Of a DNA stretch of 62,498 bases, positions 16,550 to 62,498 are shown in pieces. The stretch is from an uncultured Gammaproteobacteria bacterium. GTDB lineage: Bacteria > Patescibacteriota > Patescibacteriia > UBA9934 > GWF2-40-263. The position numbers and the translations under genes are program-made. Below the pieces are notes generated by a model, which saw only the letters and a list, made by a program, of their open reading frames with translations, made no database searches and was not told the origin of the DNA. Numbering within the stretch: position 1 is the first letter of the stretch; every line of letters begins with the position of its first letter. Location of the stretch: positions 1-62,498 of the forward strand of contig CAYHRJ010000001.1 of NCBI GenBank assembly GCA_964359095.1, in the 5' to 3' direction.

Positions 16550-16575
16550 GACACGTCGCTCGCGAGCGACGTGTC
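16550..16575. repeat. Perfect 26-nt TCGCGA-centred palindrome (PE-B)
   Basis: gacacgtcgctcgcgagcgacgtgtc, flanked by the direct repeat tcaaga. It abuts the stop codon at 16574-16576. Confidence 0.9.
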
Positions 16576-17178: not shown

Positions 17179-17769
17179 TCAGACTCTCCCGTCTTTGATG
17201 TTCTTGGAGGATCCGCGAGCGAGAACACGGTCGAGGAGGTTGACATCGTCAACATTGAGCGTAGCCAACGCAATCTGCACACGACCACCAAAATCAATCT
17301 CTGTCCCATCCTGTGCAGACAATGCAACAGCTGTCGCTCGATGATGGCCTTCCAAACACACGATCGCGCCAGAGTCTTCGCGCTTCAATCCAATGAACGT
17401 CGTCGATGACGGAAACTGCTTCATCATGCCGGACACTTTTTCATGGTCGCTGAAAAATGTCCGCTGTTCTGGAATAGCGACAAGATCAGCAAACGAGTGA
17501 ACGTTGGGTTTGGGCAATCGCGACTGCCAGCCCGTAAATGGACCAACCAACATGGCAGGGATGTCATGCATGGGATCGGTGAATTCGTAGATCACCCAGT
17601 CACGATCTTCTGCCTGAATCTGCGAGGCACTGAACCGTCTCCACGACTCCCAAGAATCCCAACCTTTGATCGTGGTCGCGCAATGAATCCACCCAGGATC
17701 GTTTCCCTCACGTTGTTTCCAGTCTTGGAAGACAGACTCCCAAGTAGTTGGTTTGATAAATTTCGTCAT
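17179..17769 (-). CDS. Hypothetical Trp-rich protein (196 aa)
   Basis: Start placed at the internal ATG (MTKFIKPTTWE). The upstream 112 codons of the 308-aa ORF are Cys/Arg-rich, cross a palindrome and a terminator, and look noncoding. Confidence 0.6.
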   Translation of the reverse strand: MTKFIKPTTWESVFQDWKQREGNDPGWIHCATTIKGWDSWESWRRFSASQIQAEDRDWVIYEFTDPMHDIPAMLVGPFTGWQSRLPKPNVHSFADLVAIPEQRTFFSDHEKVSGMMKQFPSSTTFIGLKREDSGAIVCLEGHHRATAVALSAQDGTEIDFGGRVQIALATLNVDDVNLLDRVLARGSSKNIKDGRV

Positions 17770-17805
17770 AGCGATGAGTGAAGGATAACAGAACGAGCCA
17801 CTCTT

Positions 17806-18170
17806 CACCAAAACAAAACCCGCCGTTGAGTGGCGGATGTTGTTTGGACCCGGGCTCGCTGAATTTACAGCTGGTGGACCACGTCGTTCGCGAACGACGT
17901 GGTGGACCCGACGGGATTTGCACGGCGAGGACAGTGAGTAGAGAGACTGATTTTTCTCAGTTTCTCTCGAACGACGCAGCCGTCCTGTTCGAACGAAGTG
18001 AGAACAACACCCGTATTGGTCGGTGCTAACTCGACTAGGGTTACCAATTACCCTCACGGGCCCATGAGCCCGGGAAAAATAAAATCCCCCAACGTCAAAG
18101 ACCAAATGGCCTTTGTATTGAGGGAGTTTATTGTTAGCACCGACACTGTGAGGGCAATGCCCTAGTCGTA
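17806..18170 (-). ncRNA. Candidate structured noncoding RNA or long cis-regulatory leader, class unresolved
   Basis: No credible ORF. A TTGACA at 18204-18199 with TCTACT/TACTGT -10 candidates lies upstream. An intrinsic terminator (ccgcc-N7-ggcgg plus a T-run) lies at 17836-17806. The region has many local hairpins and crossing long-range complementarities. Confidence 0.35.
17878..17903. repeat. Perfect 26-nt TCGCGA-centred palindrome (PE-B) inside the ncRNA candidate
   Basis: accacgtcgttcgcgaacgacgtggt. The 20-nt core is flanked by an 8-bp direct repeat, ggtggacc on the plus strand. Confidence 0.9.
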
Positions 18171-18230
18171 GCTACAGTAGACCACGTCCTAGATCATTTG
18201 TCAAAGCTGATCTGTGGAAAATTCTTCTGT

Positions 18231-18274
18231 AAAAAATAATAGCCCCGTGCCAAGCCTTGAGGTTGGGTCGGGGC
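18231..18274 (-). terminator. Intrinsic terminator after the 81-aa ORF
   Basis: gccccg...cggggc stem followed on the minus strand by TATTATTTTTT. Confidence 0.65.
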
Positions 18275-18286
18275 GAGCGAGGATGG

Positions 18287-18532
18287 CTAGAGCAGGGCGG
18301 AGAGTGGCGAACCCTTAACAGTCTCATCGAGCAAAGCGTGCCATCGAAGGGCCAGCTTCAGTCGGCGGCCGCGCTCTGCAGCTTCTGGTCCAACTGTCTC
18401 TGTGGACTCACCCACAATCACATCCTTGGTCAGGTATGCACTGAGGGCATCGAGCTCCTCGTCCGAAATATCTCCACCTGATCGAAAGTGGTCAAGCAGT
18501 CGCTCTGCGTGATCGGCACCGGTGATTTCCAT
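18287..18532 (-). CDS. Hypothetical small acidic protein (81 aa)
   Basis: GC-rich ORF with an AGGAG six nt upstream of the ATG and its own terminator. Confidence 0.55.
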   Translation of the reverse strand: MEITGADHAERLLDHFRSGGDISDEELDALSAYLTKDVIVGESTETVGPEAAERGRRLKLALRWHALLDETVKGSPLSALL

Positions 18533-18638
18533 GATGATCTCCTAGCAGGATTCAAACATATTGGATCGTAGTTGTCAATCTCAGCTCTCTCAAAATCAAA
18601 CAAAAACAGCCTTTCAGCTGCTTTCTCTGATCTAGCTT

Positions 18639-19004
18639 TTACTCAGCCATGGCGACCGACGGTGTGGAGCTAGAGAGATACGTTGGCATCTCGGACTCGA
18701 CGAAGCCGAGCATCTTCACGGAGCGGGCGACGTGATCGAGTGACTGCACTTTGCGCGCTTCGAGTTGTAAGTTTTGTTGCAAAAGAGAGAGTTCGCTGAT
18801 TTGGGTTTCTAGCTCGCGCATTTGATAGCCTTTGGTGGTCGCGGCGTTCACTTGGATAATCTGAGTGATGAGGAGCAAGCCAACGATCACAAGAGACGCG
18901 ATATTCAAACCAACGACATGCTCGCCGAGAAAAATTCCTAGACTCTTTTTTTGTGAAAAAGATTCTCCAGAATAAAGAACAGATTGTGCGGGGATCGAGT
19001 ACAT
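18639..19004 (-). CDS. FtsL-like cell-division membrane protein (single TM plus coiled coil)
   Basis: Lies directly downstream of mraZ-rsmH. Has one transmembrane segment followed by a leucine-zipper-like helix. Confidence 0.6.
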   Translation of the reverse strand: MYSIPAQSVLYSGESFSQKKSLGIFLGEHVVGLNIASLVIVGLLLITQIIQVNAATTKGYQMRELETQISELSLLQQNLQLEARKVQSLDHVARSVKMLGFVESEMPTYLSSSTPSVAMAE

Positions 19005-49651: not shown

Positions 49652-49814
49652 TAGACCTGTTACCAAATAAGCTTATAGCCGAAAAATGTCAGATTCGAGC
49701 GAAAGTCGTTTGAGGAAACCGAAGAATAGCCTTAGCTATTTTGAGGTTTTCGAAAATGGCTTGCAGCCGAATATGACGTTTTGCAGGCATAAGATTATTT
49801 GGCAACAGGTCTAG
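49652..49814. repeat. 163-nt long imperfect hairpin (MITE-like or structured RNA)
   Basis: Terminal arms tagacctgttaccaaataagcttat and ataagattatttggcaacaggtcta, with further internal pairing. Confidence 0.75.
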
Positions 49815-61642: not shown

Positions 61643-61668
61643 CGTCGGTCGCGACCGACGTGGCCTGC
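61637..61668. repeat. PE-B palindrome overlapping the 3' end of tRNA-Trp; left copy of a 32-bp direct repeat
   Basis: ctgccacgtcggtcgcgaccgacgtggcctgc is identical to 62467-62498. The 26-nt perfect palindrome gccacg...cgtggc is at 61639-61664. Confidence 0.9.
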
Positions 61669-62341: not shown

Positions 62342-62498
62342 CTAACCTTCAAAGGCTTCAACGACCTCAAGACGAAGTTCGCGGAGCTGGCCAAGACCTG
62401 GAATGGTTTCGTCCGCCCTCTTTAGAGATTCATCGCGACCAAAGTTCGCACGTCGCTTGCGAAGGCCTGCCACGTCGGTCGCGACCGACGTGGCCTGC
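62342..62498 (-). CDS. 3' end of an unidentified ORF entering from the right window edge
   Basis: The frame is open from the window edge to a TAG at 62344-62342 (...GLRKRRANFGRDESLKRADETIPGLGQLRELRLEVVEAFEG). It would read through a PE-B palindrome. The family was not recognised. Confidence 0.3.
   Translation of the reverse strand, partial: QATSVATDVAGLRKRRANFGRDESLKRADETIPGLGQLRELRLEVVEAFEG
62467..62498. repeat. PE-B palindrome; right copy of the 32-bp direct repeat (truncated by the window end)
   Basis: Identical to 61637-61668. Confidence 0.9.

Follow-up and report, generated by a model that had tools for sequence, protein, structure and literature searches.

A tRNA-Ala-like noncoding RNA unit with an antisense leader in a groundwater Candidatus Uhrbacteria genome

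A 62,498-nucleotide (nt) stretch of a groundwater Candidatus Uhrbacteria genome (contig CAYHRJ010000001.1, positions 1 to 62,498; hereafter the window) harbors a noncoding unit on its minus strand, from approximately position 18204 to position 17806, next to an open reading frame (ORF) of 196 amino acids (aa). The unit holds a cloverleaf whose acceptor and T-arm half is of the tRNA-Ala type, preceded by a leader that is antisense to the D and anticodon arms of the same cloverleaf. We consider this structural description very probably right. The explanation that we favor, a stand-alone gene for a tRNA-Ala–derived, tRNA-like noncoding RNA whose leader acts in cis as an antisense lock, was reached by sequence comparison, and we give it about an even chance.

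Results

A tRNA-like cloverleaf interrupted by an insertion

Relatives were collected through the neighboring gene, in ten look-ups of contigs on which a close homologue of the 196-aa protein is encoded. The only independent copy of the unit lies on contig L004, where the adjoining protein is 85% identical to that of the window. In L004 (segment 1247-1323), the orthologue is an intact 77-nt cloverleaf, GGGCUCG-UG-GAGG-UAAUUGGUAA-CCUC-A-GUUGC-GUUGGUA-CCAAC-AAAU-ACGGG-UUCAAAU-CCCGU-CGAGUCC-ACCA, which ARAGORN called as tRNA-Pro(tgg). Its 7-base-pair (bp) acceptor stem contains G3·U70 and is followed by A73 and an encoded CCA. The D arm has the GG, the variable loop measures 4 nt, and the T arm combines a 5-bp stem and a canonical loop (ACGGG-UUCAAAU-CCCGU). 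Folded without constraints, the L004 transcript adopts this cloverleaf as its minimum-free-energy structure, seated on a stem formed between the leader and the trailer.

The same gene is present in the window, where an 87-nt insertion occupies the T loop (Table 1). The initial annotation, made from the letters of the window alone, had proposed an unusual tRNA-like RNA with an acceptor-like helix, a D-like hairpin and no T arm. Both of the proposed helices are present, the first formed by GGGCCCG (18063-18057) with CGGGUCC (17910-17904) and followed by ACCA (17903-17900), the second reading AGGG-UAAUUGGUAA-CCCU (18054-18037), and the tRNA-like part of the proposal stood. However, the T arm does exist, split into ACGGG (18014-18010) and CAAAU-CCCGU (17920-17911), and the complete cloverleaf that emerges once the insert is removed had been missed. 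The insertion splits the T arm and so explains both its apparent absence and the silence of ARAGORN and Rfam. ARAGORN made no call in this region of the native window, and a search of the whole window with all 4227 Rfam families at the gathering score left the region without a match; at E ≤ 10 on positions 17650-18350, only chance matches to GlsR6 and RT-7 were returned. When the 87 nt were deleted in silico, the window sequence gave a 77-nt cloverleaf that ARAGORN called as tRNA-Leu(tag) at a relaxed threshold, and the default threshold was passed if the residual loop G was changed to U as in L004. The case illustrates a pitfall, as a single small T-loop insertion hides a tRNA-like gene from both programs.

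G3·U70 and A73 are alanine identity elements. Together with the CCA they form the set expected of an AlaRS substrate, which is present and conserved in both lineages. The 3′ 21-mer CAAAUCCCGUCGNGUCCACCA matches, apart from one N, a phage tRNA-Ala(UGC) with the acceptor stem GGGCGCG, and the acceptor and T-arm half of the cloverleaf is therefore assigned to the tRNA-Ala type. The lower half appears idiosyncratic and tied to the leader. Its anticodon is UAG in the window versus UGG in L004, with U33 in both, and the anticodon loops (GUUAGCA and GUUGGUA, respectively) carry G32 and either C37 or U37, with positions 31 and 39 mismatched in both copies (A·C or C·C). With the Rfam tRNA model (RF00005; gathering score 29), L004 scored below 28.1 bits, whereas the six genuine tRNAs of the window, which also encode CCA, scored 53-72 bits. 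The best clan match of L004 in Rfam was the tRNA-like domain of transfer-messenger RNA (tmRNA), at 28.1 bits (E = 1.2e-9; gathering score 47), in an alignment covering the acceptor and T arm only.

The fold of the 87-nt insert prolongs the T arm irregularly and pairs with the CAA of the T loop. Since it occupies the T loop in this way, the elbow between the T and D loops should be lost, which probably leaves the window copy impaired or remodelled. No second copy of the insert was found in the window or in the compared loci. A second insertion, a PE-B palindrome with an 8-bp duplication, lies exactly at the ACCA, as the initial annotation had described; the second GTCCACCA, at 17879-17872, is the duplicated target site. 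The accompanying suggestion that the CCA may belong to the repeat was not borne out, because L004 has GUCCACCA without PE-B and the CCA belongs to the RNA gene. Within the unit, the features of PE-B, a repeated palindrome with a target duplication, apply to 17872-17899 only, and the 87-nt insert is unrepeated.

The same mini-palindrome family, CGTCGNTCGCGANCGACG, was observed at 16554-16571, 17872-17899, 61643-61660 and 62473-62490, each time with a direct duplication of 7-8 bp. Two of these four elements sit exactly after a 3′ CCA, one at tRNA-Trp (61643) and the other at the tRNA-like gene, which suggests that insertion may be targeted to tRNA 3′ ends.

A leader antisense to the tRNA-like body

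The complementarities that the initial annotation had described as pseudoknot-like are real. Positions 18019-18030 pair with 18133-18144 (12 nt, perfect), 18032-18040 with 18160-18168 (9 nt, perfect), 18047-18057 with 18148-18158 (11 nt, 91%) and 17849-17857 with 18066-18074 (9 nt, perfect). The crossing of pseudoknot type was also confirmed, the left arms being ordered 3, 1, 2 and the right arms 3′, 2′, 1′. The unit contains 12 inverted 9-mer pairs compared with 0.3 in dinucleotide shuffles, and none of the 1000 shuffles reached 12. The minimum free energy of the minus strand is −159.7 kcal/mol (z = −6.96), and the plus strand has z = −5.74.

What had gone unnoticed is that these arms are an order-permuted antisense copy of positions 7-43 of the tRNA-like body. 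The leader presents the segments a1 and a2, then a3 (Table 1), and the D-loop part is uncopied. Segment a3 targets the anticodon loop together with the 3′ side of the anticodon stem. Segment a2 also serves as the 3′ strand of a local leader hairpin, AGGGC-AUU-GCCCU. In the leaders of the six genuine window tRNAs, perfect complementarity to the respective tRNA extends over no more than 5-8 nt, versus 12 nt here.

Covariation was examined with RNAalifold on two sequences, the window with its 87-nt insert removed and L004. The consensus fold contained 71 pairs, of which 11 were compensated and none broken. It consisted, in order, of the local leader hairpin, the long leader hairpin, the 9-bp leader-trailer stem, the four cloverleaf helices and the terminator. 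Between the window and L004, four compensated pairs fell in the leader-trailer stem, three in the local leader hairpin (one of them hairpin-specific, the fifth pair, C-G to U-A), two in the D stem and one each in the anticodon stem and the acceptor stem (C5-G68 to U5-A68, with G3·U70 kept). The alternative set, in which the leader pairs with the tRNA body, contained 29 pairs in the same alignment, with 100% of cells paired and eight pairs compensated. Segment a1 accounted for nine pairs (three compensated, none broken), and two and three compensated pairs fell in a2 and a3, respectively. As a control, sliding the 3′ partners by 1-3 columns left 24-40% of cells paired and no compensated pair. 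Anticodon-loop positions 35 and 37, which are unpaired in the cloverleaf, contribute two of the eight compensated pairs between leader and tRNA body. Each of the two folds thus has support of its own, because each has compensated pairs that the other cannot explain.

Energies were calculated for L004 with nested models. The cloverleaf form was the most stable at −105.0 kcal/mol, followed by the form in which a1 and a2 pair with the D arm (−100.0 kcal/mol) and the form in which a3 pairs with the anticodon arm (−93.9 kcal/mol). A dimer of the first 34 nt of the leader and the tRNA part reached −44.3 kcal/mol, against −37.3 kcal/mol for the two kept apart. Joint pairing of a1 and a3 with the uninterrupted strand 22-43 would appear feasible.

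The most conserved part of the unit is the long leader hairpin, which is followed by the U-rich run UUUUAUUUUU and is ~95% identical to L004 over 55 nt. Its conservation extends to the sequence itself, beyond what pairing demands (~95% versus 42% at neutral sites). The hairpin could bind a protein, be cut by RNase III, or act as an internal or partial terminator.

Conservation and distribution of the unit

Homology between the window and L004 begins ~25 nt upstream of the TTGACA of the predicted promoter and continues into the 196-aa gene, and the DNA further upstream is unrelated. Between the two, the four-fold sites of the 196-aa gene show 42% identity (30/72) and its third codon positions 52%. 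The RNA unit is ~77% identical, with invariant blocks of 17-23 nt. The excess over the four-fold sites indicates that the unit has been under purifying selection; a neutral pseudogene would be expected to look otherwise. Two further contigs, L005 and L053, match the window at 99% identity and derive from its own population, Hainich H41.

The unit is absent from L001, L003, L007, L072, L075 and L076 (67-79% protein identity), and in L007 a 155-aa ORF stands in its place. In L008 and L009 (67% protein identity), only the CCACCA, the trailer from CCACCAGCUG onward and the terminator are retained, which looks like a deletion remnant. The intergenic gaps measure 62-216 nt in relatives without the unit.

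Wider searches extended this picture. A metagenome scan with a 17-mer of the leader hairpin gave 51 matches, of which only L053 was real, and a scan of GTDB genomes with a gapped hairpin pattern gave nine, all due to chance. Three viral scans returned only phage tRNA-Ala and chance matches, and a nhmmer profile of the unit found no further copy among 77 compared sequences including the window. The family seems, from these comparisons, to be rare, with two closely related Uhrbacteria lineages as its only carriers so far.

A few observations were made alongside these searches. On the IMG/VR phage contig L062 (11748-11938), a tRNA with anticodon CUA adjoins a tRNA-Ala(UGC); ARAGORN labels the former ‘Pyl’, and it looks like an amber suppressor. 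The first part of L004 (1-1083) provides more than 1 kb upstream of the unit without a called gene and unrelated to the window, and it contains internal direct repeats, for example TGTCGCAAGACGAT and TGCACGACTTTGCTG. A ~160-nt element at 49652-49813 of the window has 27-nt terminal inverted repeats (AGACCTGTTACCAAATAAGCTTATAGC ...), and the same 27-nt repeat opens contig L004 (1-28), pointing to a family common to both genomes that resembles miniature inverted-repeat transposable elements.

Transcription signals

The initial annotation had described a discrete noncoding unit running from promoter to terminator on the minus strand, and the predicted promoter, the terminator and the lack of coding agree with it. 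A 308-aa extension of the downstream ORF across the unit had been judged not credible; homologues of the 196-aa protein indeed begin MTKFIKP or MLKFIKP. A decayed coding sequence was likewise considered and rejected.

The promoter had been placed at 18204-18174. Its TTGACA, at 18204-18199, is conserved and lies inside a block shared with L004 (TTTCCACAG..CTTTGACAAA). The −10 candidate comes from consensus only and is not among the calls of a consensus scan; it reads TAGTGT in L004 and TACCGT in L053. An alternative −10, TCTACT, lies at 18181-18176 with a 17-nt spacer. From the consensus, transcription would start at ~18169-18166.

The terminator, annotated near 17836-17806, was located by the terminator scan at 17838-17806. 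It is kept in L004 and L008, where changes are confined to the loop apart from one U·G to C-G. The unit therefore combines a predicted promoter, a terminator, lack of coding and conservation above neutral, as a gene of small RNA (sRNA) type does.

The extended −10 of the 196-aa gene is conserved as TGnTAT(C/G)CT in the window, L004 and L008, and it probably acts as the promoter of that gene. A promoter of its own and an almost leaderless mRNA would follow for the 196-aa gene. The initial annotation had raised the possibility that the unit is a leader for this gene. This reading failed because the terminator is strong and conserved, the extended −10 before the ATG is conserved too, and relatives (67-81% protein identity) do without the unit.

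Table 1. Positions of the RNA unit and adjoining features in the window, listed in the direction of predicted transcription.
Feature	Position	Strand	Remarks
−35 hexamer TTGACA, predicted promoter	18199..18204	−	Read from sequence; identical in L004
−10 candidate TACTGT	18174..18179	−	Proposed from consensus only; 19-nt spacer
Leader a1, CGACUAGGG	18160..18168	−	Complements tRNA-like positions 22-30; also 5′ strand of local leader hairpin
Leader a2, (AUU)GCCCUCAC	18148..18158	−	Complements positions 7-14/17 (D-stem 5′ strand)
Leader a3, GUCGGUGCUAAC	18133..18144	−	Perfect 12-nt complement of positions 32-43
Long leader hairpin	18078..18132	−	~23 bp, AUUU loop
Leader-trailer stem, 5′ strand, CCCGGGCUC	18066..18074	−	9 bp; closes tRNA-like domain
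tRNA-like gene, positions 1-54	18009..18063	−	From L004 orthologue and RNAalifold
Acceptor 5′ strand	18063-18057	−	Part of tRNA-like gene
D arm	18054-18037	−	Part of tRNA-like gene
Anticodon arm	18035-18019	−	Part of tRNA-like gene; loop GUUAGCA
T-stem 5′ strand	18014-18010	−	Part of tRNA-like gene
T-loop insertion	17922..18008	−	87 nt; absent from L004
tRNA-like gene, 3′ part	17900..17921	−	T-loop remainder (G)CAAAU, then stems, A73, CCA
T-stem 3′ strand CCCGU	17915-17911	−	
Acceptor 3′ strand CGGGUCC	17910-17904	−	
A73 and CCA	17903-17900	−	
PE-B mini-palindrome CGTCGTTCGCGAACGACGTG and second copy of 8-bp target duplication GTCCACCA	17872..17899	−	Directly after CCA
Leader-trailer stem, 3′ strand, GAGCCCGGG	17849..17857	−	
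Intrinsic terminator AUCCGCC-N7-GGCGGGU, then UUUGUUUUGG	17806..17838	−	Terminator scan
Extended −10 of 196-aa gene, TG-T-TATCCT	17782..17790	−	Outside RNA; ~13 nt upstream of ATG (17769)
196-aa ORF	17179-17769	−	Family widespread in Candidate Phyla Radiation (CPR) bacteria

Locus and neighboring genes

The gene order at the locus is mraZ, rsmH, an ftsL-like gene, an 81-aa ORF, the RNA unit, the 196-aa ORF, a 190-aa membrane protein, a sigma factor, DUF5667 and cysS. The flanking ORFs showed no TROVE domain and no other Pfam match. Between the ftsL-like gene and the 196-aa gene lies a variable spot (17770-18640 in the window; also seen in L001, L003, L007 and L076). It contains an 81-aa or 92-aa ORF in the window and L001 and a 155-aa ORF in L007, is empty in L003 and L076, and is where the window and L004 carry the tRNA-like unit.

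In Candidatus Uhrbacteria and other Patescibacteria, the 196-aa ORF has homologues that are hypothetical proteins. The protein had no match in Pfam, NCBIfam or PDB sequences. Its AlphaFold model (predicted local distance difference test score, 95) showed weak fold similarity to sulfiredoxin, ParB and Noc (E = 0.008-0.6), and the family shares an invariant G-H-R inside a nearly invariant EGHHR motif. The Pfam, NCBIfam, PDB sequence and AlphaFold-fold comparisons revealed no link to tRNA biology.

Discussion

Proposed mechanism

In the mechanism that we propose, a sigma-70–type promoter (18204-18174) would drive a transcript of ~360 nt, or ~260 nt without the two insertions, that ends at 17838-17806. 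This transcript could adopt two forms. In form A, the leader would fold on itself and the cloverleaf would form, making RNase P processing and charging by AlaRS possible, and 3′ processing of this open form would release a CCA-ended RNA. In form B, 29 bp between the leader and the D and anticodon arms would unfold the lower half of the tRNA. The leader would in this manner control the maturation or availability of an alanine-accepting, non-decoding tRNA-like RNA, and the near-invariant 23-bp hairpin may decide between the two forms. Candidate roles for such an RNA are an alanyl carrier off the ribosome and a decoy or sensor for tRNA-binding enzymes.

We hold the lock mechanism in this form as tentative, its chance lying somewhat short of even and reaching even at best. 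A broader proposal is that the unit represents a new class of bacterial riboregulators, self-locking tRNA-like RNAs that toggle between a locked duplex and an L-shaped cloverleaf of alanine identity, which would be processed and charged, would never decode, and would have a non-ribosomal role or persist, once cut by RNase P, as two pieces that the leader holds together. We regard this proposal as unlikely to hold.

Several points weigh against the locked-RNA explanation. The covariation rests on one comparison between two independent lineages (the window with L053 and L005 versus L004), and coordinated four-way changes could also stem from template switching at the DNA level or from gene conversion. 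Simultaneous pairing of a1, a2 and a3 is sterically doubtful, with connecting loops of 3 nt and 1 nt. No relative at 67-81% protein identity has kept the unit intact; its loss or decay there and its absence from the metagenome, GTDB-genome and viral scans indicate that it is dispensable. The spacer of the predicted −10, at 19 nt, is long. Finally, the window copy is without a normal T loop and may be dead.

Alternative explanations

The unit could instead be a relic, in which an old copy of tRNA-Ala type, together with a fold-back duplication in permuted order, was homogenised by template switching or gene conversion and is now decaying. The two insertions in the window, the bare remnant in L008 and L009, the loss from the six relatives listed above and the great rarity in public data would suit such a history, as would the self-antisense similarity that nhmmer sees as a DNA feature. 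We nevertheless consider it rather unlikely, given ~77% identity versus 42% at neutral sites, no broken pair among the 71 and 29, and conservation of promoter, hairpin and terminator alike. The D-loop part is uncopied in the leader while both of its flanks track the tRNA body, which argues against simple conversion tracts.

Another possibility is that the leader is a separate sRNA of ~95 nt, ending at the hairpin and U-run (18132-18076) and acting in trans as an antisense to a tRNA-like RNA made by read-through. With a1 at the predicted 5′ end and a hairpin followed by UUUUAUUUUU, the leader has the usual layout of an sRNA, the trans duplex is favored by ~7 kcal/mol, and the covariation would be the same as for a cis lock. 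However, the U-run is largely paired with an upstream AAUAAA in the fold, the hairpin is absent from the calls of the terminator scan, and the tRNA-like part has no evident promoter of its own. We find this arrangement quite unlikely, and the single transcript with a cis-acting leader remains our preferred reading.

We think it very unlikely that the unit is a cis-regulatory leader or attenuator of the 196-aa gene, sensing a tRNA-binding factor through its tRNA-like domain. It does lie on the same strand directly upstream, its terminator ends 37 nt before the ATG, and L008 retains the trailer and terminator beside the gene. Against this stand the conserved extended −10 between terminator and ATG and the wide occurrence of the gene family in CPR bacteria without the unit, with gaps of 62-216 nt. 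A T-box or riboswitch leader was likewise rejected, as the terminator stem has no competing sequence, the downstream gene carries a conserved −10 of its own, and no T-box or riboswitch matched. The initial annotation had also suggested a riboswitch or some other structured RNA, and no known Rfam family matched the region.

A decoding tRNA, reading as Leu-UAG in the window and Pro-UGG in L004, with the T-loop intervening sequence of the window removed after transcription, is highly improbable. What speaks for it are the ARAGORN calls, tRNA-Pro(tgg) for L004 and tRNA-Leu(tag) once the window sequence is repaired, and a CCA encoded as in the six real window tRNAs. The anticodon, however, is unconserved even though the neighboring proteins are 85% identical, and the G32, the pyrimidine at position 37 and the 31:39 mismatch are joined by a conflict between the alanine elements and a Leu or Pro anticodon and by an RF00005 score below threshold. 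We also know of no bacterial mechanism for removing a T-loop insert.

The resemblance to tmRNA, which the initial annotation had raised, might reflect a reduced or two-piece relative whose leader stays paired to the lower half after RNase P cleavage. G3·U70, A73 and ACCA, the best Rfam clan match of L004 and the capacity of leader and tRNA body to stay paired over 21-29 bp are in line with this idea. It is scarcely credible, since on inspection there is no conserved frame with a stop (no tag frame, and the frames differ between the window and L004), ARAGORN called no tmRNA, and the Rfam score was obtained with L004 only and lies below the gathering score (28.1 versus 47 bits). In the L004 alignment to RF00023, moreover, the halves are separated by 38 nt versus 326 in the model, pseudoknots are lacking, and full D and anticodon arms take the place of helix P2.

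An invertible DNA switch or recombination site, with inverted repeats flanking a 102-bp segment, has next to no chance: the perfect 12-bp arms (18019-18030 and 18133-18144) do change together in L004, but the arm order 3, 1, 2 versus 3′, 2′, 1′ is unlike a simple inverted repeat, no recombinase gene lies near the unit, and inversion would break the selected cloverleaf.

Comparison with known systems

Literature on tRNA-like RNAs in CPR bacteria and on T-loop insertions offered nothing relevant. The unit resembles bacterial and phage tRNA-Ala in its 7-bp acceptor stem with G3·U70, its A73 and CCA, the T loop UUCAAAU, the GG of the D arm and the length of 77 nt (in L004). It differs in having no Ala anticodon, a long antisense leader, a T-loop insertion in the window and a sub-threshold Rfam score. 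Like the tRNA-like domain of tmRNA, it has an alanine-type minihelix of acceptor and T arm that ends in ACCA and is not for normal decoding. Unlike tmRNA, it carries a leader of ~105 nt upstream of G1 and complete D and anticodon arms, and it has no mRNA-like domain.

YrlA is a noncoding RNA with a tRNA mimic, comprising D and T arms, on a closing helix, and some YrlA RNAs can be cut by RNase P and receive CCA (PMC4201824). YrlA genes adjoin rsr (Ro60), and the RNA has the Ro-binding motif GNCGAAN0-1G and a permuted tRNA-like domain with a closed ‘acceptor’ stem-loop (PMC4201824). The unit is similar in being a bacterial noncoding tRNA mimic seated on a closing helix. It was not taken for a YrlA because no rsr lies beside it, the motif was not seen on inspection, the cloverleaf is unpermuted and no Rfam match was obtained.

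Viral tRNA-like structures occupy the 3′ ends of plant RNA virus genomes and have pseudoknotted acceptor stems. Their 3′ domain alternates with a competing long-range pairing, thought to regulate the access of tRNA-binding factors. In contrast, the unit belongs to a bacterial chromosome, its acceptor stem is normal, and the competing sequence lies upstream.

In Staphylococcus aureus, tRNA-Gly isoacceptors that serve cell-wall synthesis are non-proteinogenic and have normal anticodons and no antisense leader. The idea of an aminoacyl carrier off the ribosome would be common to both, and AlaRS needs only the acceptor stem. The unit adjoins the cell-division genes mraZ-rsmH-ftsL, and no transferase of the Fem or MprF type was seen near it.

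Non-decoding tRNA mimics are few, namely tmRNA, YrlA and the viral tRNA-like structures, and each has revealed new biology. To our knowledge, no bacterial example of a conformational switch built on the tRNA fold has been described. The unit combines alanine identity elements, a non-decoding anticodon loop and an antisense partner that tracks eight substitutions in the tRNA body, and this combination suggests such a switch.

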